The notes under the pieces were generated by a model that was not told where the DNA came from, did not search any database, and worked only from the letters and a program-made list of their open reading frames with translations. The position numbers and the translations under genes are program-made. Positions 36,328 to 55,189 of a stretch of DNA of 64,000 nucleotides are shown piece after piece. The DNA is taken from contig LBTB01000001.1 in the NCBI GenBank assembly GCA_000989305.1, positions 2,104 through 66,103 on the forward strand. Reading direction: 5' to 3'. Position 1 is the first letter of the stretch. Every line of letters begins with the position of its first letter. This DNA comes from Candidatus Shapirobacteria bacterium GW2011_GWF2_37_20 (GTDB taxonomy: Bacteria > Patescibacteriota > Microgenomatia > UBA12405).

Positions 36328-38067
36328 ATGAATGATGTGACGAAAGTTTATAAAAAATTGTCGGATGTTTTATTGGATAAGGGGCTGATCGATGCGGCTA
36401 AGGCGGAAGAAATAAATTTAAGACAGGTAAAAACTGGTGAGAGTGAGGAAGAAATTATTAAATCGATGAGGATTTTGTCCGATTTGGATTTCACAAAAAA
36501 TAAGGCTGAATTTTTAAGGATACCTTTTGTTGATTTGGAAAATACCGGATTTTCTCCAGAGGCATTATCTTTAGTGCCTCAAAGTGTGGCGGAGAAATAT
36601 CATCTGGTCCCCTACCGGATGGAGCCTAAAGACAAATCTTTGTATGTGGCCATGAGTAATCCGCTTGATTTGGAAACAGTTGAATTTTTGGAGAAGAAAA
36701 CCAATCTTAAAATTAGAACCGCCATGTCTCCCGAGGCCCAAATCGACTCTTTTATTAGGGAAAAATATGAAAGAGAGAAAGGGATAACTTCAGAAGTTAG
36801 CAAGGCTTTGGATGAACAAAAAGTCGACGAGATGAAAGTGCAGTCAGAGAGTATGAAGAAAGTGTCGGCGGAGGCCCCTATTGCCAAAATTGTAACTACT
36901 ATTTTGGATTATGCAGTCAGGTCGAGAGCTTCAGACGTTCATATTGAACCAATGGAGGAAAATGTGAGGATAAGATACAGAATTGACGGTATTTTGCAGG
37001 AAAAATATATACTTCCCCGAAATGTGTTGGACGCCGTGGTAAGCCGGGTAAAGATTTTGGCGAATCTAAAAATTGATGAAAAAAGAATTCCTCAAGATGG
37101 CCGCTTTAATTTTAATCTTGACGGCAACGAGGTTGATTTGCGTATTTCAACCCTACCGGTATCTTATGGTGAAAAGGTGGTAATGCGTTTGCTGAGGAAA
37201 GCCTCAAAGGTGCCATCTTTGCCAGACTTGGGTTTAAGAGGTTTGGCCTTAAAAAATTTAATCGAAGCAATTGAAAGACCCCATGGAATAATTTTGGTGG
37301 TCGGGCCGACGGGTTCGGGTAAAACGACGACTCTATATTCGGTTTTGGATCGGGTAGCGACATCAAAAGTTAATGTGGTGACAATTGAAGACCCGGTGGA
37401 ATATCAAATGAAGGGGGTCAATCAGGTTCAGGTAAATGTTCAGGCCGGTTTAACTTTTGCTTCAGCCTTAAGATCATTTTTACGACAGGATCCAAATATT
37501 ATGATGGTGGGAGAAATCCGGGATACGGAAACGGCGGAGCTGGCTATCAATGCGGCACTGACCGGACATTTGGTTTTTTCAACTTTACATACTAATGATG
37601 CTTCCGGGGCACCGCCAAGACTGATGGATATGGGAGTGGAACCATTTTTGTTGACCTCGTCTTTGACCTGTGTGGTAGCTCAGCGGGTTTTGAGAAAAAT
37701 TTGTCCTAATTGCCGTCAGGACATGGAAATTCCTTCAGATAAAGAGACAGAGTTAAAGAGTACTCTAGGTCCGATTTACACTATGATTGAAGAAAAGTGG
37801 AAAAAGGACGGTAAAAAAATGACAATGCCCAAAATCGTTGGTTGTGATAAGTGTAATAATACCGGATATTTAGGGAGAATTGCTATATATGAGGTGATGC
37901 CGATTACGGAAAAAATTAGTAAGTTGGTGGTAGAAAAAGCCGCGGCGGCTATGATTCAAAAAGAAGCTATTAATGAAGGAATGTTAACCATGAAACAGGA
38001 CGGTTATGTCAAAGTACTGGAGGGGGTAACCAGTATGGATGAAGTGTTAAGAGTTGCCCAATATTAA
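36328..38067 (+). CDS. pilB: Type IV pilus assembly ATPase PilB (GspE family)
   Basis: N-terminal GSPII_E_N domain. Walker A 'GPTGSGKTTTLYS'. Asp/His boxes. Tetracysteine 'CPNC...CDKC'. Confidence 0.92.
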   Translation: MNDVTKVYKKLSDVLLDKGLIDAAKAEEINLRQVKTGESEEEIIKSMRILSDLDFTKNKAEFLRIPFVDLENTGFSPEALSLVPQSVAEKYHLVPYRMEPKDKSLYVAMSNPLDLETVEFLEKKTNLKIRTAMSPEAQIDSFIREKYEREKGITSEVSKALDEQKVDEMKVQSESMKKVSAEAPIAKIVTTILDYAVRSRASDVHIEPMEENVRIRYRIDGILQEKYILPRNVLDAVVSRVKILANLKIDEKRIPQDGRFNFNLDGNEVDLRISTLPVSYGEKVVMRLLRKASKVPSLPDLGLRGLALKNLIEAIERPHGIILVVGPTGSGKTTTLYSVLDRVATSKVNVVTIEDPVEYQMKGVNQVQVNVQAGLTFASALRSFLRQDPNIMMVGEIRDTETAELAINAALTGHLVFSTLHTNDASGAPPRLMDMGVEPFLLTSSLTCVVAQRVLRKICPNCRQDMEIPSDKETELKSTLGPIYTMIEEKWKKDGKKMTMPKIVGCDKCNNTGYLGRIAIYEVMPITEKISKLVVEKAAAAMIQKEAINEGMLTMKQDGYVKVLEGVTSMDEVLRVAQY

Positions 38068-38070
38068 ATA

Positions 38071-39138
38071 ATGCATAGCAAAATTGAAGAAGTATTGAGA
38101 TTGGCAGTAGCCAATAAGGCGTCGGATGTTCATTTGTGTTTTGGATTGACACCAAAAATGAGAATTAATGGTGAACTGTCTGAGATTACGAATATTGGAG
38201 TGGTTGATGACGGGGAATTAATTTTGTCCTTATTATCAGAAGAACAGAAAGAGAGGTTTTTGAAAGAAAAAGAACTAGACTTTTCTGTCACGATGGACAC
38301 GGCCAGATTTAGAGCCAACATTTATACTCAAAAAGGGCTTCCGTCTTGTGTTTTGAGAGTAATTTCAGATGAAATACCGGAGCTGGAAACTTTGAATTTA
38401 CCGGAGACTTTAAAAACTTTTACCCAGTTAAGACAGGGTTTTATTTTAATCACCGGTCCGACAGGACAAGGTAAGTCAACCACGGTGGCGGCGATGCTTA
38501 ATGAAATAAACAAAAGTGCAAGCACAAACATTGTGACAATTGAAGACCCGGTGGAATATATAATTAAACCCCTAAAATCGATTATTTCTCAAAGAGAATT
38601 GGGGGGTGATACTGTTAGTTTTGACCGGGCTTTAAAATCAGCCTTAAGGCAGGATCCCAATGTTGTCTTTGTGGGAGAAATGCGTGATCTGGAAACGATA
38701 CAGCTAGCTTTAACTGTGGCGGAAACGGGACACTTGGTTTTTTCAACTTTACATACTAATTCAGCGTCTCAAACAATTGACAGAATTGTGGATGTTTTTC
38801 CTGAGGGTTCAAAACCGCAGATTAGAATTCAATTAGCTTCTGTGTTATCGGCCGTAGTTTCTCAGAGATTAATTCCGGCGATAAGGGGAGGTCGGGTGCC
38901 GGCGGTAGAAATTTTGACGGCTTGTGCGGCGACAGCTAATACAATTCGGGAAGGAAAAACTTTTATGATTGATAATGTGATTCAGACAGGGGCGGATCTG
39001 GGAATGGTAAGTTTGGAGATGTCTTTAGCGCGTTTAGTCAAAAAAGGCCTGGTGGACGAGAAGGTGGCGATGAGTTATGCAACGAAACCAGTAGAATTAC
39101 AGAGTTATTTAAGAAGTTTAAAGCAGGATAATGGCTAA
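38071..39138 (+). CDS. pilT: Type IV pilus retraction ATPase PilT
   Basis: Walker A 'ITGPTGQGKSTT'. 'VFVGEMRDLETI' and 'GHLVFSTLHTN' PilT motifs. 355 aa. Confidence 0.9.
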   Translation: MHSKIEEVLRLAVANKASDVHLCFGLTPKMRINGELSEITNIGVVDDGELILSLLSEEQKERFLKEKELDFSVTMDTARFRANIYTQKGLPSCVLRVISDEIPELETLNLPETLKTFTQLRQGFILITGPTGQGKSTTVAAMLNEINKSASTNIVTIEDPVEYIIKPLKSIISQRELGGDTVSFDRALKSALRQDPNVVFVGEMRDLETIQLALTVAETGHLVFSTLHTNSASQTIDRIVDVFPEGSKPQIRIQLASVLSAVVSQRLIPAIRGGRVPAVEILTACAATANTIREGKTFMIDNVIQTGADLGMVSLEMSLARLVKKGLVDEKVAMSYATKPVELQSYLRSLKQDNG

Positions 39139-40345
39139 ATTTGTATACCGGGCCAAGGATTGGAGCGGAAAATTGGTCAGGGGGGAGTTAGAAATGGGCT
39201 CAAAGAAAGAAGTGGTGGAATCGATAAAGGGTAACGGGTTGATTCCCCTATCGGTGGAAGCAGTAGCGAGTAATTTTTTTTCGGAGATTAATAAAAAAAT
39301 AAAGGGTAGGGTTAACTTAAAACAAGTCAGCACTTTTACCAGACAATTATCGACGATGATGACTGCCGGTTTACCTCTAACTGACGCTTTAGCCTTATTG
39401 AAAAATCAGCAAAGTGAAAATGATGGTTTATATCAAGTTTTGGAAAAGACCTTGGAAGAAGTTCGGGCGGGAATGCCTCTGGGAAAATCTCTTGAAAAAT
39501 ATAAAAATATTTTCGGGGAGGCTTATGTGGCTTCAATTTCAGCCGGTGAAGAGGCCGGAGTATTGGATGAAGTTTTGGGAAAGCTGGCTACTAACCTGGA
39601 AAATCAAAACGAGTTTCAAGGAAAGGTTAAGGGGGCAATGATTTATCCGGTAATTGTGATTGTGGCCATGATAATTGTGGTGTTTATTATGATGATTTTT
39701 GTAATTCCGAAGTTAACCGGATTATATGCGGATTTTGGGACGGCAAAAATGCCGGCGGCGACCCAGGCCCTGATGTCAGTTTCCGCTTTTATGGCCAAAA
39801 CCTGGTACTTGTTTCCAGTATTAATTGCTGGAGGGTATTTTGCCTATTCTGTGGGGATAAAAAGTGAAAAATTTCGGTTGAAAAAGGATAGTCTACTGTT
39901 GAAGATACCGATTGTGGGGGTGTTGAATGAAAAATCAATTATGGCCAATACCTGTCGAACTTTTTCCATGTTGTTAACGGCAGGAATTACTCTGGTTGAG
40001 GCGCTAAAGATTGTGGCTACGGTTTCAGGAAATGAGGTTTATAAAAAAGCCTATCTGCAGATTGCTGAGAAGGTCCAAAAAGGTTTTTCAGTGGCAACAT
40101 CTTTTGAAAATACGAGTGTGTTTCCGATAATTGTTAACCAAATGATTTCTACAGGTGAGGCGACGGGAAAATTGGATGACGTATTGATGAGGGTGTCTGA
40201 TTATTTTTCAAAAGAAGCTGAAGAATCGGTGAAAGCATTAACGGCGGCAATCGAACCGGCAATTATGATAATTCTGGGAATTGGGGTAGGGTTTCTGGTA
40301 ATAGCGGTGGTGATGCCGATATATAACTTGACATCGTCATTTTAG
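39131..40345 (+). CDS. pilC: Type IV pilus inner-membrane platform protein PilC (GspF family)
   Basis: Two GspF repeats, 3 TM helices. 404 aa. Confidence 0.9.
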   Translation: MAKFVYRAKDWSGKLVRGELEMGSKKEVVESIKGNGLIPLSVEAVASNFFSEINKKIKGRVNLKQVSTFTRQLSTMMTAGLPLTDALALLKNQQSENDGLYQVLEKTLEEVRAGMPLGKSLEKYKNIFGEAYVASISAGEEAGVLDEVLGKLATNLENQNEFQGKVKGAMIYPVIVIVAMIIVVFIMMIFVIPKLTGLYADFGTAKMPAATQALMSVSAFMAKTWYLFPVLIAGGYFAYSVGIKSEKFRLKKDSLLLKIPIVGVLNEKSIMANTCRTFSMLLTAGITLVEALKIVATVSGNEVYKKAYLQIAEKVQKGFSVATSFENTSVFPIIVNQMISTGEATGKLDDVLMRVSDYFSKEAEESVKALTAAIEPAIMIILGIGVGFLVIAVVMPIYNLTSSF

Positions 40346-40389: not shown

Positions 40390-41061
40390 ATGAAAAAAGC
40401 ATTTACGTTGGTAGAACTACTGATCGTCATTGCCTTGATTGCTATTTTGTCGGTAGCAGTTTTGGCCACAATTAATCCTATTGAACAAACGAATAAGGCT
40501 CGGGATGCTAAGTTTAAAAACGATGCAGCCGAAGTTTTGAGCGGATATGAAAGATTTTTTGCCTCTCAGAATAAATATCCCTGGAATATGGATAATGATG
40601 GTTTGGGTAGCATTGATAACGGTGAGGTGGCCTCAGGTGTAAATAATATTGCCTTTTTGTCAAGAGATTGGAGGTTTGGAGTTTTGGATGAAACAGGAGC
40701 GGCGAGCGGTCAATTAATTACGACCTCGGAGTTAAAAACTGCTTTTGGAAGTAGCAAAGAACCTTTTGATGATACGGTAGTCGCTGGAAGTGAGGACGCA
40801 ATGTACATGTTTCATTCCAATGATTCAAATTACGTTTGTTTTTGTCCTAAAGCTAACGCTAACCGGACTGGGGCTGTTGCCAGTCAGTTGAAGTGTTTGG
40901 ATAGAGTTGAAGCCGTGAATGCTACTGTCGATGTTTCAACGGCAACCTTAAGTGATTTGGGTGGAACTTGTTTAGCGGCAGCTGATCCAAAGGCTAACGG
41001 TTTTTGTGATTTAGGAACTACAGCTAATCTTCTCTGTGTCCCAGAAGGTGATATAAATTAA
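40390..41061 (+). CDS. Type IV pilin (candidate major pilin)
   Basis: Class III signal 'MKKAFTLVELLIVIALIAIL' (Glu5). C-terminal Cys pairs. First pilin after pilBTC and followed by a strong terminator. Confidence 0.85.
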   Translation: MKKAFTLVELLIVIALIAILSVAVLATINPIEQTNKARDAKFKNDAAEVLSGYERFFASQNKYPWNMDNDGLGSIDNGEVASGVNNIAFLSRDWRFGVLDETGAASGQLITTSELKTAFGSSKEPFDDTVVAGSEDAMYMFHSNDSNYVCFCPKANANRTGAVASQLKCLDRVEAVNATVDVSTATLSDLGGTCLAAADPKANGFCDLGTTANLLCVPEGDIN

Positions 41062-41075
41062 AAAATCATTGTAGA

Positions 41076-41105
41076 TTTTCAACCCCGTCGCAAGGCGGGG
41101 TTTTT
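41076..41105 (+). terminator. Rho-independent terminator after major pilin gene
   Basis: 'aaccccgtcgcaaggcggggttttt'. GC stem then a T-run. Confidence 0.6.
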
Positions 41106-41129
41106 GGTGGAAATAAGTTACAATTAACT

Positions 41130-41888
41130 ATGTATTTGTTTTTAGGAATTATGATTTTTTTGTTGGGGTTGTGTGTTGGGAGTTTTATCAATATGGCCTT
41201 GTGGCGGGTGGGAAATAACAAGTCACTGCTTAAAGAAAAAAGAAGCTATTGTGATTTTTGTAAAAAGAAATTGAAATGGTATGACAATGTCCCGGTGTTG
41301 TCCTTTTTAATTTATAAAGGAAAGAGTCGGTGTTGTGGAAAAAAATTGTCACCCTCCTACCCTATTGTGGAAATATTGACCGGAATAATTTTTGTTTTGA
41401 ATTTTTACTATTCAACTACCTATCTACTACTCTTTTTAACTTTTATAATCTTGGGATTGTTGGTTTTCGAGGCAGCTTTTGATTTTAAATACATGACCTT
41501 ACCTGATTTGACAGCCTTTTTATTAATTGGCCTGGCTCTATTGAGGTGGTTAGTGTTGGGAACGCCAAAATCCTTTTTGGTTTCGGCCTTAATATCGGGG
41601 TTATTTATTTTGCTTTTGCATAAAATTAAGATACGGGGTCATGAAGCCATGGGTGACGGAGATATTTTATTGGCGGTATTTATGGGATTATTTTTAGGTT
41701 TTCCCAATATTGTTGTCGCCTTTTATATAGCATTTGTGATGGGGGCGATTGTTGGCGGGTTTTTAATATTAAAAAAAATAGTAGGACGGCTGACCCCAAT
41801 TCCCTTTGGTCCCTTTCTGATTTTGGGAACAGTAGTGGCTTTTTGGTGGGGAGAGAAAATAATAAGGATTTTAGAGATTAGATTTTGA
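41130..41888 (+). CDS. pilD: Prepilin peptidase PilD (A24 family)
   Basis: N-terminal Zn-binding 'CDFCKKKL...CCGKKL'. Multi-TM. Conserved Asp-containing loops ('GDGD'). Confidence 0.88.
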   Translation: MYLFLGIMIFLLGLCVGSFINMALWRVGNNKSLLKEKRSYCDFCKKKLKWYDNVPVLSFLIYKGKSRCCGKKLSPSYPIVEILTGIIFVLNFYYSTTYLLLFLTFIILGLLVFEAAFDFKYMTLPDLTAFLLIGLALLRWLVLGTPKSFLVSALISGLFILLLHKIKIRGHEAMGDGDILLAVFMGLFLGFPNIVVAFYIAFVMGAIVGGFLILKKIVGRLTPIPFGPFLILGTVVAFWWGEKIIRILEIRF

Positions 41889-41927
41889 GACTAGAAAACA
41901 TAATTAAAAAAGAAGTAGAATAAATAA

Positions 41928-42575
41928 ATGAAGAAAAGTGGAATAACGCTGGTGGAAATATTGATTGTAATGGCGATTATTTTGTTACTGATTGCAGTGG
42001 CGATTGGGGCTTTGAATCCGATTGGAATAATGAATCGGGCCCGGGATGCACAAGTAAAAAAAGATTTGAACCGAATTAGAATTTCTTTTGAGGATTATTA
42101 TAACGACAAGGGTTGTTATCCAAACAGAGAAAAGATAGAGGAGCTGGCTTTAGGGAGTAATTGTGATTCTAAAGTTGTTTTTAGGCCGTGGATGGCCAGT
42201 TGGCCTTGTGATCCGAATGATAAACCTTACCAGGTGTTGATAGGTTATGATGAAAATTGCCCAAAATGGTTTAAAATATTGGCTTCTTTGGAAAATAAAA
42301 CGGATAAAGAAATTTCTTATGAGCTGGTGACTGAAGGAACTTTGGCGGTAGGATCTACTGCTTATAACTATGGAGTTTCCAGCGGCAATATTACAATTGA
42401 AGAAATCACTGGTTTAAAAGATCCTTATTGTGGAAATTTGGGCAGTTGCTATTATTATCCGGCTCCAAATATGTGCAATAAAACTGATAGTAGCGGGTGT
42501 TCCGGGACGAATTGTTATTTGGGAGAATGTAGTGTCCGCTGTCATGTGAGTTGCTGTGGTCCAGGATGTGATTAA
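41928..42575 (+). CDS. Prepilin-type protein with Cys-rich C-terminus
   Basis: 'MKKSGITLVEILIVMAIILLL' signal. C-terminal 'CGNLGSCYYYPAPNMCNKTDSSGCSGTNCYLGECSVRCHVSCCGPGCD'. Confidence 0.75.
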   Translation: MKKSGITLVEILIVMAIILLLIAVAIGALNPIGIMNRARDAQVKKDLNRIRISFEDYYNDKGCYPNREKIEELALGSNCDSKVVFRPWMASWPCDPNDKPYQVLIGYDENCPKWFKILASLENKTDKEISYELVTEGTLAVGSTAYNYGVSSGNITIEEITGLKDPYCGNLGSCYYYPAPNMCNKTDSSGCSGTNCYLGECSVRCHVSCCGPGCD

Positions 42576-42598
42576 AAAATATGTTAAATTTATATAAG

Positions 42599-43111
42599 AT
42601 GAAAAAAGCATTTACCTTAGTTGAACTATTGGTGGTAATTGCGATTATGGGTATTTTGACTATGATAACCGTGTCACAGTTTCAAACGGCTAAACGTAAA
42701 GCTAATGATGTGGCTAGAAAAGGAGATTTGAATGCGGTGGCTAAAGCTTTGCAAATGTATTATACGGACTACAGTGTGATGCCGGAGATGGATAATGTTG
42801 CTGGTGGTCAAATTGCGGTGGGGGGGGTAACGAAAGCCTGGGGGGCGGAATTCAATGATGCTAGTGGTTATGTTTATATGAAGACTTTACCCAGAGAAAA
42901 TAATGATGCTTTACCGGCTTATTGTTATAAAACGGATGCTAACAAAAAGTTCTATGCTTTATTTGCGATGCTGGAAAATGGGGTTGATAGTCAGTGTGAT
43001 CGAAACAATGACGGGATGGCAGACGTGACCTATCGGTGCGGAGGAAATTTATATTGTTTTGCTTATGTCAGCCCTAATACTAGTTTAAATACAGATGGTA
43101 GCTTCAAATAA
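42599..43111 (+). CDS. Prepilin-type protein
   Basis: 'MKKAFTLVELLVVIAIMGIL' (internal Met of ORF 42581). Confidence 0.8.
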   Translation: MKKAFTLVELLVVIAIMGILTMITVSQFQTAKRKANDVARKGDLNAVAKALQMYYTDYSVMPEMDNVAGGQIAVGGVTKAWGAEFNDASGYVYMKTLPRENNDALPAYCYKTDANKKFYALFAMLENGVDSQCDRNNDGMADVTYRCGGNLYCFAYVSPNTSLNTDGSFK

Positions 43112-43538
43112 GAAAGCCTTTACTTTGATCGAATTGCTAGTGGTAATCAGTATTATTGCTACACTTACGGCAATATTGTTGCCAAATTTTATGGGGGCTA
43201 GGGAAAGGGCGGCTGATTCCAACAAAAAACAGGGTTTAGTGGCGATAAAAAATGCCTTAAGACTTTTTTATAATGACACCCAAAATTACCCTTCTTCAAC
43301 AAATATGACTGAGTTAGAAACGACACTGGCCTCCTATATGCCAAGTATTAGTGGAATTGGTTTCACTTATAGTTACGCTCAAACCAATGGTGGCGATGGG
43401 TTTCAATTATGCGTTGAGGTTGATTCGGGGGGAAATGAAATTAGTGTTTCACAAGCTCAGTGCAAGGATGCCATTAATCAGGTGTGCGGGACAACGATCA
43501 GTAGCAACTTAAAATTATTTGTTGTTTGCGCTAATTAA
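43095..43538 (+). CDS. Prepilin-type protein
   Basis: 'NKKAFTLIELLVVISIIA'. Two C-terminal Cys. Confidence 0.75.
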   Translation: MVASNKKAFTLIELLVVISIIATLTAILLPNFMGARERAADSNKKQGLVAIKNALRLFYNDTQNYPSSTNMTELETTLASYMPSISGIGFTYSYAQTNGGDGFQLCVEVDSGGNEISVSQAQCKDAINQVCGTTISSNLKLFVVCAN

Positions 43539-43542
43539 AAAT

Positions 43543-43971
43543 ATGAAAAAAGCTTTTACCCTATTTGAACTATTAGTCAGCATTTCGATTATCGGAATTT
43601 TAGTGGCAGTGGCATCGACTTCTTATAGCGGGGCTCAGAAAAAGGCCAGGGATTCGAGAAGAATGGAAGATTTGAATAGTATTCAAAAAGCCTTGGAACT
43701 ATATTACAGTACCAATCCAACCAGTCCTTTTACTTATCCGTCAGTAAGCGGTGGTCAAGCTGTGGGAATGACACCGGTCTATATTCAAAGTTGGCCAAGG
43801 GATCCAAAGACCGGAATACCTTATGTTTATAATTTTAATGTGCCGGCGGCGGGGAATTATTGCGTTGGGGTAAGCTTAGATTATCCGGTGGGTAATTGTC
43901 CCAACCCTACTACCTGTGTGGGCATTGGAGCGAGTGCCGCCTCCTATTATTGTGTTAAAAGCCAACAATAA
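43543..43971 (+). CDS. Prepilin-type protein
   Basis: 'MKKAFTLFELLVSISIIGIL'. C-terminal Cys pairs. Confidence 0.8.
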   Translation: MKKAFTLFELLVSISIIGILVAVASTSYSGAQKKARDSRRMEDLNSIQKALELYYSTNPTSPFTYPSVSGGQAVGMTPVYIQSWPRDPKTGIPYVYNFNVPAAGNYCVGVSLDYPVGNCPNPTTCVGIGASAASYYCVKSQQ

Positions 43972-44016
43972 ACAAAGAAAGAAGTTAGAGATTAGAAAAA
44001 GATTTTAGAAATATAA

Positions 44017-44409
44017 ATGAAAAAAAACAAAAAAGGATTTAGTTTTATTGAGTTGATTGTAGTGGTGACGATAATAGCGGTACTGAGTGTGGTGGGAGTG
44101 GTAAGTTATGGGGCAATAAATAAAAAATCTCGTGATTCACGGCGTATTTCTGATTTAGCAAATATGCGCATGGCCCTGGAGGCGATGAGGCAAATTGGGA
44201 CGACTTATCCCCTAGACAGTAGCGGTTTACCCGTGGGATTAGCACCAACTTACATGGAAGTGTTGCCCAAGGATCCAAAAAGCGGGTCATATTTTTATAC
44301 TCAGCTTTCCAGTGGCTATAGATACACAATTTGGGCAAAAATGGAGGATTTAGGTTCAACTACAGGGGATTATGGTAGTGGCTATAATTACCAGGTAAAC
44401 AACCCATGA
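44017..44409 (+). CDS. Prepilin-type protein (canonical Gly at -1)
   Basis: 'MKKNKKGFSFIELIVVVTIIAVL'. Confidence 0.8.
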   Translation: MKKNKKGFSFIELIVVVTIIAVLSVVGVVSYGAINKKSRDSRRISDLANMRMALEAMRQIGTTYPLDSSGLPVGLAPTYMEVLPKDPKSGSYFYTQLSSGYRYTIWAKMEDLGSTTGDYGSGYNYQVNNP

Positions 44410-44888
44410 AACGGGCTTTTAGCCTGGTGGAAATTTTGGTTTTGGTAACGATATTGGCTGTTATTTCTGGTGGAGCTCTGGTGTATTTAAATAGTTTTAA
44501 TTCTCAACAAAAATTAAATAAGGGAAGAGATGAAGTGGTTTTGGCTATAAAACTGGCGCAGAGTTATGCCAAGACCAGACAGTTGCCGGTTGGTTCGGAT
44601 GAAACAGAGTTGAGATATGTTCAACTGCAAATAAAGGACGGTAATTTAGTGGCTGGAGCTAACGGGATCGGTTCGACTTATTTTAGTATTCGGATTGGTA
44701 ACGAGGGAATAGGAGTAAGTATTTCTCCTCAAGTGATTTATTTTTGGGCAGGAAATGGTTTTTGGGTAAAAGATGAGCTGGGAACTTTAAACAGCAACAA
44801 TGAGAAGGCCGAGGTAACTATCGAGCAAAAAAACATAATAATTAGTCAGGAAAAAATTGAAATAAATAGTTTGGGACAAATTCAATAA
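44406..44888 (+). CDS. Minor pilin-like protein
   Basis: 'MKRAFSLVEILVLVTILAVISGG'. Paralog of the N-terminal 110 aa of the next gene. Confidence 0.7.
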   Translation: MKRAFSLVEILVLVTILAVISGGALVYLNSFNSQQKLNKGRDEVVLAIKLAQSYAKTRQLPVGSDETELRYVQLQIKDGNLVAGANGIGSTYFSIRIGNEGIGVSISPQVIYFWAGNGFWVKDELGTLNSNNEKAEVTIEQKNIIISQEKIEINSLGQIQ

Positions 44889-44930
44889 AATTAATAAAAA
44901 ATATATTGTGATTGTGCTAAAGTTTTATTA

Positions 44931-45710
44931 GTGAAGAGTAGTTTTACCTTAATAGAATTGTTGATTTCTTTTACGATTTTGGCAGTAATTTCGGGCGGAG
45001 CTCTGATGTATTTAAATAATTTTAATGCTCAACAGAACCTGGACAAGGTAAGCAATGAAGTGGTGTCTTCGTTGAAATTATCGCATAGTTACGCAAAAAC
45101 AAAACAAGTACCGATTGGTTCAGCTGAAACAGAGCTGAGATATATACAAGTTCAAATGGTGGGAAGCGGCATTGTGGCCAGGGCAAGCGGGATAGGAGAA
45201 ACTTTTTTTGACATTAAGATAAATAATAATGGAATTGGGGTGAGCTTTTCTCCCGGGGTAATATATTTTTGGGCAGGAAATGGTTTTTTGTCACATGATG
45301 GTGCTGGAGAAATGTATGGAGCTGGAGAGACGGTGACAATTACCGTTCAATCACAAAATAATTTTATTGGTTATAACGCAATAATAGTTGACGCTTTGGG
45401 TCAAGTGAAGTTAATAAGCTACAATGAGGGTGTGCTTCCTAGTCGAGTACCGACGGCAGTACCAACAACAGTAGTACCAACGGTGGCACCAACAACAACA
45501 ATACCAACGGTAACACCAGTACCAGTCTGTAGGTTGGGCGGGGTTGCTTGTGGTGTTCACAGTGATTGTTGCTCTTATTATTGTAGTAGTGGTGCCTGTC
45601 TGGGTGTGCCATCAGCAACACCAACATTATCTTGCAAGTTGGGTGGGGTTGCTTGTGGTGTCCATGGTGATTGTTGCTCTTATTATTGTAATCTTAATTT
45701 TTGCAATTAA
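44931..45710 (+). CDS. Minor pilin-like protein with Thr/Pro/Val linker and two tandem Cys-knot-like modules
   Basis: GTG start 'MKSSFTLIELLISFTILAV'. 'TAVPTTVVPTVAPTTTIPTVTPVPV' linker. Duplicated 'C(R/K)LGGVACGVH(S/G)DCCSYYC' modules. Confidence 0.7.
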   Translation: MKSSFTLIELLISFTILAVISGGALMYLNNFNAQQNLDKVSNEVVSSLKLSHSYAKTKQVPIGSAETELRYIQVQMVGSGIVARASGIGETFFDIKINNNGIGVSFSPGVIYFWAGNGFLSHDGAGEMYGAGETVTITVQSQNNFIGYNAIIVDALGQVKLISYNEGVLPSRVPTAVPTTVVPTVAPTTTIPTVTPVPVCRLGGVACGVHSDCCSYYCSSGACLGVPSATPTLSCKLGGVACGVHGDCCSYYCNLNFCN

Positions 45711-45714
45711 AAAT

Positions 45715-46134
45715 ATGATTGTCGTAAAAAGAAAAGCCCAAGGAGTAATTGAATCAGTATTTGCTGTCGGGATATTGGCGTTGTTGCTGACCGGGGCAGT
45801 AATATTGGTGATTATGGGAATTGCCAATAGACGGAGCAGTTTTGACAGAAGAAAGGCAACAGAATTGGCAAGCATAACCATTGAAGAACTGATTAGCATA
45901 AGTCAAAATAATCCTGAAGAGTTTTGGCGACTGACAAATGTCAGCAATCTAAGAAAGGATGGTTATGATGGTTATTCTTATTCAATTTCTTTTACCAATG
46001 TTAGTGGTGACATTAACTATCCTCAGTGCGGAGTCGGGAAAACTGATTGTGCTGAAGCAGTGGTGTCAGTCGGCTGGTCGGGAAAGACGGAACAGAGTTT
46101 ATATTTTAACCGTTTTTTCAGCAAAAATGACTAA
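45715..46134 (+). CDS. Hypothetical membrane-anchored protein, possibly pseudopilin-like
   Basis: 'MIVVKRKAQGVIESVFAVGILALLL' is a noncanonical prepilin-like N-terminus. Internal Met of ORF 45544. Confidence 0.45.
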   Translation: MIVVKRKAQGVIESVFAVGILALLLTGAVILVIMGIANRRSSFDRRKATELASITIEELISISQNNPEEFWRLTNVSNLRKDGYDGYSYSISFTNVSGDINYPQCGVGKTDCAEAVVSVGWSGKTEQSLYFNRFFSKND

Positions 46135-46621
46135 AAAAGCTTTTACCTTAATCGAAACTTTGGTAGCAGTGGGGGTGTTGGCGGTGTTGATGGTGACTGT
46201 GGGAGCAATTTTGTTGATGTCGCTCAAATCAAAAAATTCAACGGAAGTTAATGAGTCAATGTCCTCGATTGCAGTATTTACTTTAGGAGAATTAAAGAAA
46301 AATATTTTTGATGCTCAATTGGGTCAGATAAATTGTCCGGTTGATATCGGGAATTCGATTAGTTTTATGACTAAAAGCGGTGGTGTGACTACCCTACTCT
46401 GTGACGAGGCTAGTGGAGAAGTTGCGTCGGTATCGGCCAGCGGGAATAATTATTTTTTGAACGAAAAAGTCAGAATTCAAAATTGTAATGATTTTGTATG
46501 GTGTACCCTGTCGGCTGATTCAGAAATATTGTCGATTGGATTTAGTTTAAATTTGGTGACCGGTGGTGATGGAGTGGGAAATTCGGGAATCTTTCACGGA
46601 GCAGTGACCCCAAGAGACTGA
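46127..46621 (+). CDS. Minor pilin-like protein
   Basis: 'MTKKAFTLIETLVAVGVLAVL'. Internal Met of ORF 45959. Confidence 0.7.
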   Translation: MTKKAFTLIETLVAVGVLAVLMVTVGAILLMSLKSKNSTEVNESMSSIAVFTLGELKKNIFDAQLGQINCPVDIGNSISFMTKSGGVTTLLCDEASGEVASVSASGNNYFLNEKVRIQNCNDFVWCTLSADSEILSIGFSLNLVTGGDGVGNSGIFHGAVTPRD

Positions 46622-46763: not shown

Positions 46764-48056
46764 ATGATTGAAAAAATGACTGAAATAAAAAATGGAGCTA
46801 GTAGAGGCTCTTGGAGAAGAGCTTTTAGTGGAGCTGCGGCTGGAGTAATTGCGGCTACCACTATTGCAGGTTGTGGTGAAACTATTAAAACTGCGGTAGT
46901 TGATCCGACACCAACTTTAGAAGCTTCCCCGGTATCGGGAACTGGAGAGTTTTCGGTGTTGTTTACCCCAAATAGTTTGCAGAATCTAGATGCTGAGGCC
47001 AAAGCGATTGTGAGCAAGAACTTGGAATTAATTAATCAGGAATGTAATCAAGACTTACCGGGAAGAATGATGCCCGGGAGCGAGAAGTATCTCTTTGCTA
47101 GAAACAAGAGTAATGAAACTTTTATTTGGGGTTTTTGTGATGTGGCCTCGGCTGATGCACCGCCAAAAACGGTGGTGTCAATGTTTGATTGGACGGCAGG
47201 ACCTTCGGGAGAGACGCAAAAAATTTATCAGGATTTAGTAGCTTTTGATGATGGCACTATGGGTTATGTGGACAGTAACGGCAATTCTCATGCGATTTTG
47301 AAGATAAATAATGACAACATGATTGAGGTTTATGATATTAATGAAAAAGTGGTGGCAGAGCAAGTAATGACGTCGGAGGCAATTGGATTTTTTGATGGAA
47401 TAAAAAATGTTAGTGGAAATTTTGAGCCAACAGCGATAGCAACTGAGGTAGCCAAAAAAACATACGATATCGATATGGAAAAGTTTTTTAATGCAGCTCC
47501 AAGTTATGAATATATGGTGGCTCATCCTGACGAATACGTTGAGGCTCCTGATTTATTGAGCGATGTCGAAGCTTTTAAAGATTGGTATTACAATAAATAT
47601 ATTCCGGCTTTGTGTGAGGGAAATAAATATAGAATGGAGACGAATGTTTATATGGGTGCAAGTGGATTTGATAAATCGGGAAATTTACAGATTTCCGCAA
47701 TGGATGGGATTGCAGGTCCGTTAACTAATAAATTGCCGATGGCTTTTTTCATACACGATGAAATTCTTTTTCCCATTTTGGCTTTTACTGTAGATAATGT
47801 TAATAATGGTAATATTGGTACTTATTCAATTATTTTGCATGAGAAATATGGCGGAAGAGATGGTTTTGAAGCGATAAGCAACTTATATGGGGGAAAAAGG
47901 GTTATAAATTTGACAGGAGAGATTTCAGTAGGGCCAGAAGAGTTTAATTCTGATGTAAGAAAAGAGTTTTTTATGACTGATTTTAATTGGGTTGATGTCG
48001 ATAGTAACTTTACTAATTTTAGAATTGGTTTGGGTGGGGTAATAACGAGCGATTGA
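46764..48056 (+). CDS. Putative lipoprotein (430 aa)
   Basis: Signal peptide with lipobox 'TIAGCG'. No further domain recognised. Embedded in the pilus locus. Confidence 0.6.
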   Translation: MIEKMTEIKNGASRGSWRRAFSGAAAGVIAATTIAGCGETIKTAVVDPTPTLEASPVSGTGEFSVLFTPNSLQNLDAEAKAIVSKNLELINQECNQDLPGRMMPGSEKYLFARNKSNETFIWGFCDVASADAPPKTVVSMFDWTAGPSGETQKIYQDLVAFDDGTMGYVDSNGNSHAILKINNDNMIEVYDINEKVVAEQVMTSEAIGFFDGIKNVSGNFEPTAIATEVAKKTYDIDMEKFFNAAPSYEYMVAHPDEYVEAPDLLSDVEAFKDWYYNKYIPALCEGNKYRMETNVYMGASGFDKSGNLQISAMDGIAGPLTNKLPMAFFIHDEILFPILAFTVDNVNNGNIGTYSIILHEKYGGRDGFEAISNLYGGKRVINLTGEISVGPEEFNSDVRKEFFMTDFNWVDVDSNFTNFRIGLGGVITSD

Positions 48057-48100: not shown

Positions 48101-48574
48101 ATGAAATGGTGGTATGTGGTAGTGTTGATGGTTGGGGTGGGAATTGGTTGGTGGATTTTAAAAAATTATGGAGTTAAGAAAGAGGTATCTTTCGGTGGAG
48201 TAGTGGAGGAAAGTATTGTTCTGGGAGAAGTGGCGAAATTGCCAACGATAATTATTTCCGACAATAAGGGAAAAAAGGTGGAAGCAGTGGCGGTGGATGG
48301 AGGTATAGTTCAAAAATGGAGCCCGGAAACGGGGGAAATTGAATTTATCAGGGAAGAAAAATTATGGAAATTGACAGTTAATCCGACTGAGGCGATGATT
48401 ACTATTCCAAATATAAGTGATAGAACAAGGATAATTTTGGTCTCAGATAAAAGTAGTCTGCATTGGAAAACTGCATTTTGTAAGGGTGACTTTGTGTCGA
48501 TTAGGTTGAGCGGAAATAAGGTGATGGCCATTGATAATGGCGGTTATAGATCGTGTGGATTTAAAGGCGAATGA
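48101..48574 (+). CDS. Bitopic membrane protein
   Basis: N-terminal TM 'MKWWYVVVLMVGVGIGWWIL'. 157 aa. Stop overlaps the start of the next gene. Confidence 0.5.
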   Translation: MKWWYVVVLMVGVGIGWWILKNYGVKKEVSFGGVVEESIVLGEVAKLPTIIISDNKGKKVEAVAVDGGIVQKWSPETGEIEFIREEKLWKLTVNPTEAMITIPNISDRTRIILVSDKSSLHWKTAFCKGDFVSIRLSGNKVMAIDNGGYRSCGFKGE

Positions 48575-51153
48575 AGCAAAAATTTTTTTTATTTATTTTG
48601 GCATTTTGTTTAAGTTTTATTTTTTTTGCTAAAGATTCCCGAGCGGCTTGTTGGCATTGTAGTGGTTATTATTGTGTAAATAGTGGCACCTTTGATTGTG
48701 GGAGTTGTAGTAAAGATTCTGATTGTTATAAAGATTGTCCGGCTTATAGAACTTGTGATGCTGGTGCTTGTATAACCAATTCTGGATACAGAACAACACC
48801 TAGTGCTACGTGTAAAACAAGTACCTGTTCAACTAGCGCAAATTGTTACACACCGAGTAATACTCCGGCGCCAACTGCAGTGCCAACTCCCTGTTTAAAA
48901 ACTTGTTCTTATAAATATTGTTCAGGTTCAAGTTGTTTAAGTGGAGGTTCGACAATACTTTGTTCACAAACTTGTCCGGCAAGCACTTGTACGGATAATG
49001 CCAGTTGTTCGTGTTCGCCTGGTTGCTGGGATTGTGCAACTGGTTGTTGTAACAGTCCTGATTGTTATGGAGGAAGTAGTTGTAAAACGTGTCCAACTTC
49101 AGCGCCGGTGCCAACCTTGGTCCCAACAATAACACCTGGAGGACCAACTCCGGCGTGTGATTTAAGTAATAACAATTTTTGCAACGTACCATTTCCAGAT
49201 TGTTATTATTCTTGTTTACCTTGTGCGGCAACAGACATAGGCTTGCATGTGGTTAGACAAAAAACAACGCAATGTTATGATACTTGTTCTCCTTTAGCTA
49301 ATAAATGTTACGATAGTACTCCGCTTACATATGACGCACCGTTGCAATGTGGTTATTGCGATGATATTGCATATCCGACTGGGTGTCAGCCGTACACGTG
49401 TTACCCGGCACCAGATCCAGTTTGTCCGGGTTTTTATCCGGCGACAACTTGTACCAGTAGTGGTGGTATAGGTAATTGTGATAATTGTGGTGGTATGGAT
49501 TGTGGATATTGTCCGGGGGTGGGGGTGTTACCGACACCAACGCCACTTCCAGGTGGAGTGACTGTATCTTGTAACTGTTCTGATTATTTCAGTACGGCAT
49601 TAACGGTGTGTGATTCAACCACTTTCCTTTGTCCTGGTTCCAATCCGGCAATTTATTGTTATGGTTTGGCGGGATGTAATATTCCGATTTTGGGAAATGT
49701 GGTGATAGATAATGCTGATTCGGTAGCAGTAACAGCAGATGCCAGTAACCGTAATCATATTTGCGAAGATACTTTTGTGGGCGCTTCCCTGCCCCGGAGA
49801 GTAATTGTTGAGGCGAATGTGAGTGACGGAGACGGTTATGCTGACATTAGTACGGTACAGTTGAGGTGGAACGGGACGATTTATAATATGAGTTTTGTGT
49901 CCGGATCAATTAATTCGGCTACTTATAGAGCAGTAATTGATTTTAGTGGGGCACAGAATAGTGGCGGAACTTATGCTTGGGAATTTAACATGGTTGATGC
50001 TGATGGTAACACTAGTGGTTGGGAAGACAGTATCAGGAGTTTTAAGGCCTGGGATTGTTTGGTCCCAGTATCAGGAATACTTTATGATGGCAGTGCTGGA
50101 CAGGCGTGTAATAATACCGGATTTACCACGATAATAATTAATGCTACCGGATTTAGAGAGATGTTATACAGTAATAGTTTAGGGGTAAATGATGTGGCCT
50201 TTGTGGTATCTCCTCCTGCTAATTATGGAAGTGCTAGTTTAACTTGGGGACAGACTTATTTGCCATTAATTAACGGCGGCGATGTGAGTAATTTGAACGG
50301 TGATTTGACGGCAACAGGAAGATTTACCCGGATTATTGATGAGGGAGTGGGAACGACCTCCTGTCCGGTCAACAGCCAGTTTAATATTGGTACTTATGTG
50401 TCGGCTTATGGTTTGACTCCAAGGGCAAAAGTGGATATGTCCTTTATTCGTGACCAGGAAGCTTGGTTTCAAGTGGGAGGAGCCGGAGTAAAGGCAAAGA
50501 TGGATATCGACAGCGGAGTGCCGGCAACCATGTTACCGCTTAGTTCCCGGGCTTTAAGCGTTTCCGGGATTAATGCCAATAATGGATTGATTTCGTACGG
50601 AGGAAACTTTAGCAATATTAACGGATTTAATGACTCGAGTGCTTATGGAAGCCCTAATAATTGGTATGTAAATGTAAATACAAATAATTTGAGTAATTAT
50701 AGTTATCAATATTTTTATAATACTTTTTACGTTAACGGCGGAATTGGGGTGACCGGAACAAGTTGGAATGATCATCCGAGTGAGGGGGTATATTTTGTAA
50801 ACGGGGACATGATTGTTAATAGTGATTTTGCCTTAGCTTCAGGTAAAACATTAATAGTAATTGTTAGAGGAAAAATTAGTATTGGCAGTAATGTTAACCA
50901 GGTTGATGGAATATTTATTGCTGATGGAAACAGTAGTGATTCGGTGGGAATTGAGGTTGGAGGAACTTCAGATACTCAATTGTTGATTAATGGATCTTTG
51001 TATTCCAGAAAGGCAATAAGACTTTACAGAAGTTTTACAGACAAAATAGTAAATAATACGGTTCCGGCAGTAGTGATTAAATATAATCCTAACTTATTAT
51101 TTAATATGCCCGGATCTTTGATGAGGGTGCTAAGCGGCTGGAGGGAGGAGTAA
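48571..51153 (+). CDS. Large secreted cysteine-rich protein (860 aa), candidate pilus-associated adhesin
   Basis: Signal peptide 'MKQKFFLFILAFCLSFIFFAKDSRA'. About 80 Cys in the first roughly 350 aa in CxxC/CxC arrays with PT-rich spacers. C-terminal beta-rich domain 'VYFVNGDMIVNSDFALASGKTLIVIVRGKISIG'. Translationally coupled to PilX-like gene. Confidence 0.7.
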   Translation: MKQKFFLFILAFCLSFIFFAKDSRAACWHCSGYYCVNSGTFDCGSCSKDSDCYKDCPAYRTCDAGACITNSGYRTTPSATCKTSTCSTSANCYTPSNTPAPTAVPTPCLKTCSYKYCSGSSCLSGGSTILCSQTCPASTCTDNASCSCSPGCWDCATGCCNSPDCYGGSSCKTCPTSAPVPTLVPTITPGGPTPACDLSNNNFCNVPFPDCYYSCLPCAATDIGLHVVRQKTTQCYDTCSPLANKCYDSTPLTYDAPLQCGYCDDIAYPTGCQPYTCYPAPDPVCPGFYPATTCTSSGGIGNCDNCGGMDCGYCPGVGVLPTPTPLPGGVTVSCNCSDYFSTALTVCDSTTFLCPGSNPAIYCYGLAGCNIPILGNVVIDNADSVAVTADASNRNHICEDTFVGASLPRRVIVEANVSDGDGYADISTVQLRWNGTIYNMSFVSGSINSATYRAVIDFSGAQNSGGTYAWEFNMVDADGNTSGWEDSIRSFKAWDCLVPVSGILYDGSAGQACNNTGFTTIIINATGFREMLYSNSLGVNDVAFVVSPPANYGSASLTWGQTYLPLINGGDVSNLNGDLTATGRFTRIIDEGVGTTSCPVNSQFNIGTYVSAYGLTPRAKVDMSFIRDQEAWFQVGGAGVKAKMDIDSGVPATMLPLSSRALSVSGINANNGLISYGGNFSNINGFNDSSAYGSPNNWYVNVNTNNLSNYSYQYFYNTFYVNGGIGVTGTSWNDHPSEGVYFVNGDMIVNSDFALASGKTLIVIVRGKISIGSNVNQVDGIFIADGNSSDSVGIEVGGTSDTQLLINGSLYSRKAIRLYRSFTDKIVNNTVPAVVIKYNPNLLFNMPGSLMRVLSGWREE

Positions 51154-51155
51154 AG

Positions 51156-51953
51156 ATGAAATTAAAAAAGATGATAAGTAATTATAAAAGAGGGCAAGTG
51201 GCCATAATTGTGTTGTTGGTTTCGGCAATGATGATGACCTTGGGATTGTCGCTATCTAAAAAGGCAACCACAGAAACCAGAATTGACATTAATGAAGAGT
51301 TACTGAAGAAAGCTTTTAATGCGGCAGAATCTGGAATTGATTATTATCTGGGAACTGGCAACCTTACTTATAATGCGCCAGACAATTTATCTTCAGCCGA
51401 GATAACAGCCAGGGACATTACTGGTGAGGGTAACATTTTGGATTTTGGAGAGTATGTACCAATTAACGGATCCGAATTTTATTGGCTAGTAAACCATTTG
51501 GATAATGGGGATATTGGGGTGACTTATTACGGAGCGGCAACGGTGAATGTGTGTGGCACCGGATTTACGGGATCGATGGAGATAAATTATTTTTATAAAA
51601 CAGGAGCGGAATATGGTGTCAACAGGTATGGCTATAATTTCAGCAGTGATGTAACTAAGCAGGTAAATGGTTTTACGGCCGGAACCGGAGGTTGTGCCAC
51701 TATAAACATTGTTAACAGTCCAATTTTGATTACGGTTACTCCCATTTTTAATGGGGGGAGGTTTTATTTGAGTGGTTCGGGTACTTTTCCAATTCAGGGG
51801 GTGGAGATAAGCTCGAGAGGAAGATCGGGAGGAGTGTCGGTGGATGTTTCCGAAACTCAGGCAAATAAAAAATTAATAGTGTTGCGACGTTATAAGATCC
51901 CCTCTTTTATGTTGTCAGGAGTAGTTTCTGAAACTTCGGTATTGAGCGATTAG
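51156..51953 (+). CDS. PilX-like minor pilin/pilus assembly protein
   Basis: N-terminus 'KRGQVAIIVLLVSAMMMTLGLSLS' resembles the PilX_N domain. Confidence 0.55.
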   Translation: MKLKKMISNYKRGQVAIIVLLVSAMMMTLGLSLSKKATTETRIDINEELLKKAFNAAESGIDYYLGTGNLTYNAPDNLSSAEITARDITGEGNILDFGEYVPINGSEFYWLVNHLDNGDIGVTYYGAATVNVCGTGFTGSMEINYFYKTGAEYGVNRYGYNFSSDVTKQVNGFTAGTGGCATINIVNSPILITVTPIFNGGRFYLSGSGTFPIQGVEISSRGRSGGVSVDVSETQANKKLIVLRRYKIPSFMLSGVVSETSVLSD

Positions 51954-54160: not shown

Positions 54161-55189
54161 ATGAGTGATATTATTGGGGTTGATTTAGGACTGGGAAGTA
54201 TTAAAGTAGTGGCCTTGAATAAAGGTCAGGATAAGTTTACTTTGGCGGCAATTGGAGAAGTCAAGACTCCAAACGGTGAGTGGATGAAATCGGGGGCAAC
54301 TAAAAAAAATGTAGAAGAAGTGGCGATAACTTTAAAAAGCTTGATTAAAGATTTGAAGCTTGGTAACAGACAAGCGGTAGTGGCTTTGCCGGAGTACGAA
54401 ATTGTCAGCCGCTTAGTATCATTACCGCCTTTAAAAGAAAGTGAGATTAAAGATGCCTTAAAGTTTGAAGCGGAGACCTTTGTCCCCTACCCTTTAGATA
54501 AGGTGTCAATTGATTATGAGGTGATTGAGGAAGATGAGGCGGGACGTTTGACGGTGTTTGCGATTGCCGCCAGAAATGATTTGATTGCCAATTACGTTAA
54601 GATATTTAGGGAAGCAGGTTTGGAATTGTTAGCAATTGAATCACCGGCGGTATCAATGCGACGGGTATTAAAACAAATTGCCACGGCTTCTGAGGCAACT
54701 ATGGTGGTGGATATCGGACAAAAGTATTCCGATATCATTGGTTTCAAAAGCGGTAATATTTATTTTGCCAGATCGATGTCGGTTGGAGGCGAATCTCTGA
54801 CCAGAGCAATTTCAGTTAATCTTGGTTTAGATGAGGCCTCAGCTGAGGAATATAAGAAAGCCTATGGTATAAAAGAAATGGAACTTGAGGGTAAAATCAA
54901 GAATGCTATTATGCCGGTTTTCAACAGTATGGCTGAAGAAATTCGACGGGCAATGGCTTTGTATGCGGAAAGTAATAATAAGACAATTGAGCTTTTAGTT
55001 TTAAGTGGAGGCGGAGCAAAAATGCCGGGTCTGGCCGAGGAACTAACTAGATTGTTGGGAATTGAAGTTCAAGTGATTCAGCCTTTTTTAAAAATTGACA
55101 GTCAACAAATTGTGGCCCCGATTGATTTGGGGGTTGAAGGTTATAGGTTTTCCACTGCAGTGGGATTGGCGCTGAGAGACATGGTATGA
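54161..55189 (+). CDS. pilM: Type IV pilus assembly protein PilM (actin-like ATPase fold)
   Basis: 'IIGVDLGLGSIKVVAL' N-terminal phosphate-binding motif. 342 aa. Confidence 0.85.
   Translation: MSDIIGVDLGLGSIKVVALNKGQDKFTLAAIGEVKTPNGEWMKSGATKKNVEEVAITLKSLIKDLKLGNRQAVVALPEYEIVSRLVSLPPLKESEIKDALKFEAETFVPYPLDKVSIDYEVIEEDEAGRLTVFAIAARNDLIANYVKIFREAGLELLAIESPAVSMRRVLKQIATASEATMVVDIGQKYSDIIGFKSGNIYFARSMSVGGESLTRAISVNLGLDEASAEEYKKAYGIKEMELEGKIKNAIMPVFNSMAEEIRRAMALYAESNNKTIELLVLSGGGAKMPGLAEELTRLLGIEVQVIQPFLKIDSQQIVAPIDLGVEGYRFSTAVGLALRDMV

Follow-up and report, generated by a model that had tools for sequence, protein, structure and literature searches.

A modular minor pilin with paired knottin-like cysteine modules in a type IV pilus operon of Candidatus Shapirobacteria

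This analysis concerns two adjacent pilin genes in a 64,000-nucleotide stretch of DNA from Candidatus Shapirobacteria bacterium GW2011_GWF2_37_20 (contig LBTB01000001.1, positions 2,104 to 66,103), a member of the Candidate Phyla Radiation (CPR, or Patescibacteria). The whole stretch is called the window; its G+C content is 38.9%, and all coordinates are window positions on the forward strand unless another locus is named. The first gene, the short paralog (44406-44888), encodes a FimU/GspH-like minor pilin of 160 amino acids without a C-terminal extension. The second, the long paralog (44931-45710, GTG start, stop codon at 45708-45710), encodes 259 amino acids, in which a pilin module is followed by a Thr/Pro-rich linker and two modules of six cysteines each. 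By a slight balance of probability, we take the long paralog to be a pilus-displayed modular minor pilin with a bivalent binding head.

The pilin module (residues 1-166, 44931-45428) consists of a class III signal, a helix at residues 7-57 and then eight beta strands. The Thr/Pro/Val-rich linker (residues 167-199, 33 amino acids, 45429-45527) is predicted to be disordered, with the predicted local distance difference test (pLDDT) score below 50 from residue 167 on. It includes the string TAVPTTVVPTVAPTTTIPTVTPVPV at residues 175-199, and its DNA contains short periodic repeats of 12, 15 and 27 nt. Cysteine module 1 (CRLGGVACGVHSDCCSYYCSSGAC, residues 200-223, 45528-45599) has the spacing C-x6-C-x5-CC-x3-C-x4-C, and module 2 (CKLGGVACGVHGDCCSYYCNLNFC, residues 235-258, 45633-45704) has the same spacing. 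The two are joined by the inter-module linker LGVPSATPTLS (residues 224-234, 45600-45632), and after module 2 only Asn259 precedes the stop codon. Three results describe a modular architecture: the alignment with the short paralog covers no more than residues 1-160, residues 167-199 are predicted to be disordered, and the modules also occur in proteins which are not pilins.

A preliminary description of this DNA had picked out the linker and the duplicated six-cysteine modules of the second paralog, and both are present. It had also called the DNA of the two copies nearly identical. They are clearly related, but that wording was too strong, as the copies are 80-88% identical. The repeat covers 82 nt at 80% identity (45504-45585 versus 45609-45690), and within the C1-C5 core the modules differ at 7 of 60 nt, mostly synonymously. 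A six-frame scan of the 64 kb found the C-C-CC-C-C pattern typical of inhibitor cystine knots (ICKs) at just two sites, which are modules 1 and 2.

The pilin pair

The two open reading frames (ORFs) exist as first described, and BLASTP, the Pfam model PF07963, NCBIfam and Foldseek matches to FimU all agree that they are paralogous minor pilins. They are a tandem duplicate of a FimU/GspH-type minor pilin. The shared N-terminal region had been put at about 110 amino acids; it is in fact longer, since BLASTP aligned all 160 residues of the short paralog to the long one with 86 identities (54%), no gaps and an E-value of 6e-63.

The usual residue at position -1 of a class III signal is Gly. The signal of the long paralog reads MKSS/FTLIELLISFTILAVISGG (MKSS/FTLIE), with Glu5 present and Ser at -1, and that of the short paralog reads MKRA/FSLVE, with Glu5 present and Ala at -1. 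The long paralog passes PF07963, the N_methyl domain, with 24.6 bits against a gathering cutoff of 21.2, and the short paralog stays under the cutoff at 17.3 bits, though its motif is the same. The top NCBIfam match of both is TIGR01708 (gspH), at 23.6-26.7 bits and over the N-terminal 60-70 residues only; for the short paralog this match, below cutoff, has an E-value of 4.7e-6.

The structure of the long paralog was predicted with AlphaFold2 using 13 homologs, and pLDDT was mostly 70-93 over residues 1-160. When the pilin module was compared to the PDB with Foldseek, the top five matches were chains of FimU (4ipu and 4ipv), with probability 1.0 and template modeling (TM) scores of 0.69-0.70 normalized to the target. 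The best was 4ipu, FimU of P. aeruginosa, at a TM score of 0.70, and the first match which was not FimU had an E-value of about 0.09. The protein thus has the signal of a type IV pilin, the predicted lollipop fold, and genes for a cognate prepilin peptidase and pilus machinery nearby. It is almost certainly a FimU/GspH-like minor pilin encoded in a type IV pilus operon, a call made because of its fold and gene position, its sequence falling short of curated membership.

The cysteine modules and their relatives

A profile built from ten of the modules was searched against all PDB sequences. The first match was a spider ICK peptide, U3-scytotoxin-Sth1a (5fzv, E 0.0015), whose structure was determined by nuclear magnetic resonance (PMC4881942), and six of the seven other matches down to E = 10 were ICK toxins. 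The module and 5fzv have identical loop lengths, align without gaps, have the turn H-(S/G)-D-C-C in common and are 40% identical over 25 residues. The Pfam matches of the modules were to knottin-toxin families only (Toxin_19, Conotoxin_I2, Conotoxin, Toxin_23 and Toxin_18). Module 1 in isolation scored 23.5 bits with Toxin_19 (PF08088) against a gathering cutoff of 23.2, and the full protein scored 21.7, below it. Conotoxin_I2 (PF17557) matched all ten modules, each under its 27-bit cutoff; the modules are not filed as conotoxins, because the match reflects the shared scaffold.

A model of module 1 was predicted with AlphaFold2 from 62 aligned modules, and the pLDDT of its core (residues 11-30) was about 90. 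Foldseek returned 18 PDB matches for this model, of which 17 were knottins. The best was again 5fzv, with a root mean square deviation of 0.4 Å over 25 residues, a TM score of 0.76, a probability of 0.97 and an E-value of 0.13. The superposition implies the pairing C1-C4, C2-C5 and C3-C6 as the predicted disulfides, with the third threading the ring which the other two would form. The ICK framework, six cysteines in the order C-C-CC-C-C with loop lengths in the known range, is present twice in the protein and is invariant in 12 orthologous modules.

The preliminary description had suspected a knottin-like module and proposed a profile search and a structure prediction of the C-terminal region. 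The matches to ICK toxins in PDB and Pfam, together with a predicted fold like that of solved knottins, bear the suspicion out at the level of profile and predicted fold. The modules are probably independently folded, ICK-like disulfide mini-domains. Homology and convergence with the animal ICKs cannot be told apart in sequences of this length, and the likeness implies no toxin activity.

The invariant Ser-Tyr-Tyr of the modules also raised the idea of a carbohydrate-binding knottin-like domain. Neither hevein (PF00187) nor CBM1 (PF00734) matched any of the ten modules at E <= 1, so the idea found no profile support and is speculation on the type of ligand only.

Homologs which carry the modules include P0001 (99.6% identical, from another assembly), P0002-P0006, P0016 and the loci L002 and L007. 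They were drawn from independent JGI, ENA and Logan assemblies, and some are on long contigs, of 836 kb and 355 kb, which keep the order of the operon. At least six independent assemblies share the architecture, with diverged DNA and all 12 cysteine codons conserved. The orthologs have one module (P0003 and P0005) or two, and linkers of about 25 to about 55 residues. Across 10-12 modules from six to seven orthologs, the six cysteines and the Ser-Tyr after the CC pair are invariant, and the His is nearly always kept. Ortholog modules were retrieved by the module-profile search at E-values of 5e-26 and 3e-17. Strong purifying selection acts on the modules: between the window and L001, their ratio of nonsynonymous to synonymous change (omega, Nei-Gojobori) is 0.05-0.08, compared with 0.22 in the pilin domain.

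The two modules of one genome resemble each other more than the modules of different genomes do. The differences within a genome are the 7 of 60 nt already given for the window and 3 of 60 nt for L001 (10001-10756 of that locus), versus 13-15 of 60 nt between genomes. The C5-C6 loop is instead specific to position: SSGA or SGGA in module 1, and NLNF or STLHF in module 2. The within-genome similarity, taken with the position-specific last loop, points to gene conversion acting on an older duplication. Judging from the sequences, this concerted evolution would be limited to the C1-C5 part, the first ~60 nt of each module, and the duplication would predate the split of the window and L001 lineages.

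A scan of species-representative genomes found two related loci and a scan of metagenomes found ten. Relatives with the same operon fall into three states. A single short FimU-like gene is present in L003, L006, L008, L011 and the P0013 locus; a pair of short and long genes is present in the window, L001, L004/L005 and L007; and L002 has a single long gene with two abutting modules and an extra four-cysteine tail. The module-bearing form is therefore an accessory, lineage-variable feature. P0009 (US68_C0006G0015), a protein of Candidatus Shapirobacteria GW2011_GWE1_38, has the same sequence as the short paralog of the window.

The L002 contig (CAZEXG010000008.1) is labelled as an uncultured Gammaproteobacteria bacterium, yet its type IV pilus operon is collinear with that of the CPR window, the encoded proteins are visibly alike, and its FimU-like pilin is 45% identical to the long paralog over residues 1-258. 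The metagenome-assembled genome is probably contaminated or mislabelled.

The module profile was also searched exhaustively with HMMER against 1.84 billion cluster representatives, which gave 25 matches at E <= 1e-3. Three of these were discarded as repeat-driven false positives: P0020 (a retrotransposon), P0021 (mucin-like) and P0030. Two of the 25 are the FimU-like pilins P0004 and P0016. Most other matches are not pilins, and their N-termini look like signal peptides or lipoprotein signals. Proteins of this wider family have two to seven copies each, up to seven exact-spacing tandem copies of CxxxGxxCxxxxDCCSxxCxxGxC. Several exceed the Pfam cutoff of Conotoxin_I2 (P0017 at 49.5 bits), and a search of NCBIfam with the wider-family proteins gave no model matches.

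P0039 is a different pilin, with a PilV-like N-terminus (TIGR02523, E 6e-10), T/P linkers and two related six-cysteine modules of slightly different loop lengths. Since this unrelated pilin also carries modules, the fusion of module and pilin arose more than once. In P0032, a protein of 248 amino acids, two knottin-like modules at the C-terminus occur together with a PqqD domain (PF05402, E 3.7e-8) and a segment resembling a twin-arginine signal. This pairing of knottin-like modules with a recognition-type domain of ribosomally synthesized and post-translationally modified peptide (RiPP) systems is odd.

The preliminary description considered a toxin-like or knottin-like module on a pilin subunit to be unusual. 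The module itself belongs to a wide bacterial family of tandem cysteine modules and is of a known kind. What appears undescribed, in the parts of the literature covered here, is a FimU-type pilin fused to it: the supplementary text of a modular-pilin survey (PMC8179133), in a possibly incomplete version, lists no knottin, toxin or cysteine architecture.

The surrounding type IV pilus operon

The paralog pair is enclosed by a complete type IV pilus operon which, by family-profile matches, has genes for PilB, PilT and PilC, for PilD, for about ten pilins and for PilM, PilN and PilO. The operon begins with profile matches to the PilB ATPase (36328-38067), PilT (38071-39138) and PilC (39131-40345). 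Between PilC and PilD is a 223-residue pilin (40390-41061), and the prepilin peptidase PilD (41130-41888) matches PF06750 and PF01478. Five further GspG/PilA-like pilin genes follow (41928-42575, 42581-43111, 43095-43538, 43519-43971 and 44017-44409), and the start of the short paralog overlaps the stop of the last of these by 4 nt. Next after the long paralog come a gene for a pilin-like protein of 139 amino acids (45715-46134) and a pilin-like minor pilin of 164 amino acids (46127-46621, leader MTKKA/FTLIE, PF07963 20.6 bits, just below cutoff), which overlap by 8 nt. Three genes without a Pfam match, including one for an 860-residue protein, lie between the minor pilins and a gene for a PilX_N-like protein (51156-51953). 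PilM (54161-55189), a gene in the PilN position (55186-55743) and a PilO/T2SSM-like gene (55710-56495) form the downstream end of the operon. The gene order of the operon was also found in the relatives L001, L002, L004/L005 and L007, and the downstream order of PilX_N-like, PilM, PilN and PilO genes was matched in L001 and L004.

Across the pilin genes from 40390 to 46621, the -1 residue of the prepilin leader is mostly Ala or Ser, not Gly, before F-T/S-L-I/V-E, and among the orthologs in relatives it differs between Gly, Ala and Ser. The 139-residue protein (45715-46134) has the leader MIVVKRKA/QGVIES, with Gln instead of Phe at +1 and Glu5 retained. It is kept in all related loci, and a Pfam search with it gave zero matches. 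From a reading of its sequence, it may be a divergent minor pilin.

The 215-residue GspG-like pilin at 41928-42575 has a dense cysteine tail, with 12 cysteines within its last ~48 residues (...CGNLGSCYYYPAPNMCNKTDSSGCSGTNCYLGECSVRCHVSCCGPGCD). L002, L006, L007 and L008 have kept this tail, which is unlike the six-cysteine modules and gave no family match; with it, the same operon has a second pilin bearing a disulfide-rich appendage. The secreted protein of 860 amino acids (48571-51153) has 57 cysteines, and its N-terminal ~330 residues are cysteine-rich blocks on T/P linkers. It had no match in a Pfam search, and its position and size are kept in relatives (756 amino acids in L001, 754 in L002 and 798 in L004). 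It may be a pilus-associated adhesin of this system. Finally, the gene at 46764-48056, after the minor pilins, was compared with its counterparts in L001, L002, L004 and L007. Across these collinear loci its length (430 to at least 620 amino acids) and sequence are highly variable, and no family match was found. This gene is a hypervariable part of the operon.

Possible role and comparison with known systems

The proposed mechanism draws on precedents from modular pilins and on the host binding of PilX2 in Saccharibacteria. PilD would process the pilin module of the long paralog, which would then be assembled into the filament. As for FimU and GspH, the subunit would be placed at the junction of the priming tip complex and the shaft. 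The preliminary description had suggested a binding tip; a FimU/GspH-type subunit would be expected just under the tip complex and not at the very tip, and the gene order, with further minor-pilin-like genes next, is only suggestive of this placement. The extended linker of ~33 residues, rich in Thr, Pro and Val, would hold the two 24-residue mini-domains outward from the filament. Each mini-domain would have three disulfides and an ICK-like fold, and the two heads would form a small bivalent binding unit resistant to proteases and shear. The bacterium is probably an episymbiont, and the ligand may lie on the surface of the cell it attaches to, or on some other substrate. The short paralog would be a plain, unarmed version of the same subunit. 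Taken by itself, the binding or adhesive role of the modules seems to us evenly poised.

Several observations weigh against this interpretation. The curated cutoff of TIGR01708 is 80 bits, and by sequence neither paralog belongs to GspH. The full-length AlphaFold2 run left the C-terminal part unmodelled, with pLDDT below 50, and AlphaFold, which was trained on ICK structures, could impose the ICK fold on any sequence with such cysteine spacing. The Foldseek E-values of the module are weak (0.13 or above), because the domain is tiny, and the Pfam scores are at or under gathering thresholds. Pfam gave no match of the modules to chitin-binding or cellulose-binding knottin-like families. CPR organisms of groundwater are generally anaerobes, and a motif search of the window turned up no thiol-disulfide oxidoreductase, which is uninformative for the whole genome; for these two reasons the route of disulfide formation is left unexplained.

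Some of these points would fit a different explanation, which we consider unlikely: that the modules are non-knotted disulfide-rich or metal-binding mini-domains with a structural role, which stabilize or cap the subunit, act as spacers or cross-link cysteine-rich pilus proteins. The operon does encode two other cysteine-rich extracellular proteins (41928-42575 and 48571-51153), AlphaFold2 may be biased, the disulfide connectivity comes from a model, and the full-length model left the region unstructured. Against this, the loop lengths equal those of a solved ICK exactly and the core of the module-only model is predicted with high pLDDT (about 90). The even number of cysteines per module and the variable copy number of one to two argue for self-contained, intramolecular pairing, and a long flexible linker is ill-suited to capping the pilin fold. 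The conserved His beside the cysteines could ligate a metal in an anoxic habitat; metal binding was nevertheless judged unlikely, since there are no CxxC pairs. An artefact of assembly or annotation, by which the tandem module would stem from a repeat that was collapsed or expanded, or the C-terminal extension from a frameshift into non-coding DNA, can practically be dismissed. Tandem repeats and short periodic repeats like those of the linker are error-prone in metagenome assemblies, and the preliminary description had itself named such an artefact as a finding which would undo its claim. However, one or two modules recur in orthologs from independent assemblies, the architecture is in at least six of them with all 12 cysteine codons conserved, the two copies differ at 7 of 60 nt, and the omega of 0.05-0.08 indicates purifying selection.

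It is also improbable, rather more so than a structural role, that the modules are effectors or warheads which, like the knottins of animals and plants, block a channel of the host envelope, inhibit a protease or damage a membrane, whether still attached to the pilus or once freed from the linker. In sequence and fold they matched ion-channel toxins and one trypsin inhibitor exclusively, but this likeness goes no further than the cysteine scaffold and a few turn residues, and a shared scaffold does not reveal the target. Venoms contain tandem bivalent ICKs, among the secreted cysteine-rich repeat proteins (SCREPs, PMC9885460), and CPR bacteria often live as parasites of other microbes (PMC11623550). 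Here, though, the module is covalently tied to a structural pilin through a linker without an evident processing site, and the same type of module occurs in long tandem arrays of many secreted proteins and lipoproteins, suggesting a structural or binding repeat. The most far-reaching version holds that the modules are true cystine knots, by shared ancestry or deep convergence with the venom ICKs, and that they form a bivalent pilus warhead which plugs or grips a host channel or porin. We give this only a slim chance. If true, the type IV pilus would be a contact-dependent delivery device for a toxin-like ligand, and the large, unannotated bacterial CxxxGxxCxxxxDCCSxxC repeat family would be a prokaryotic reservoir of the knottin fold.

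Read as a pilus-displayed minor pilin with a bivalent binding head, the locus matters for several reasons. How CPR bacteria recognize and hold their hosts is largely unknown, with type IV pili as the foremost candidates; the candidate binding head at this locus is very small and well delimited. Its presence in some close relatives and absence in others gives a handle for comparisons of host specificity. The 66-residue region would be a concrete test case, easy to express, from which a bacterial knottin-type module could for the first time be solved experimentally; many bacterial surface proteins are built with such modules in tandem. A knottin which is naturally displayed on a pilus could also interest engineers who use knottins as binding scaffolds.

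Among known systems, FimU (4ipu) and GspH are the best structural and the best NCBIfam match of the pilin module, respectively, and like them the window gene heads a run of minor-pilin-like genes. They differ in that sequence identity is 16% only, the window organism has two copies, and known members have no C-terminal extension. Fungal cellulases have CBM1, a disulfide-stabilized binding wedge of ~30 residues with conserved tyrosines and a T/P-rich linker (Ser/Thr/Pro). Its resemblance to the window modules is one of design only, as PF00734 gave no match and the cysteine framework is different.

The modules have the same cysteine framework, C-x6-C-x5-CC-x3-C-x4-C, as ICK peptides such as U3-scytotoxin-Sth1a (5fzv) and the conotoxin I-superfamily (PF08088 and PF17557), but they are bacterial and fused in tandem to a pilin, whereas those are free secreted peptides with a pro-region. 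Also comparable are the bacterial knottins, named in the KNOTTIN database paper as a family without an experimental structure (PMC5753296), and the prokaryotic cysteine-rich tandem-repeat proteins of ScrepYard, most of which have unrecognized domains and more disordered linkers (PMC9885460). The window-related family fits both descriptions, with sequence-predicted knottin-type modules which are often in tandem with disordered linkers.

In modular pilins, binding modules are grafted onto pilins (PMC8179133), and an abundance of such architectures in CPR phyla is already known (PMC8179133, PMC9934059). PilB of Streptococcus sanguinis, with a vWA domain, and PilC, with a lectin domain, are likewise minor pilins from a pilus operon (PMC8179133, PMC9934059). 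The known grafts are single bulky domains of 200-400 residues on a short loop, whereas the window protein carries two 24-residue disulfide mini-domains on a T/P-rich linker of ~33 amino acids, and its carrier is of the FimU/GspH type. The Saccharibacteria pilins PilX1 and PilX2 are also CPR minor pilins with C-terminal accessory domains, and efficient binding to the host requires PilX2 (PMC11623550). The accessory domain is a beta-jelly-roll in PilX1 and a beta-propeller in PilX2, in contrast to the cysteine mini-domains of the window, and the pilin class and phylum also differ. Altogether, the locus follows the modular-pilin theme with a bacterial knottin-type module and is not a new kind of system.

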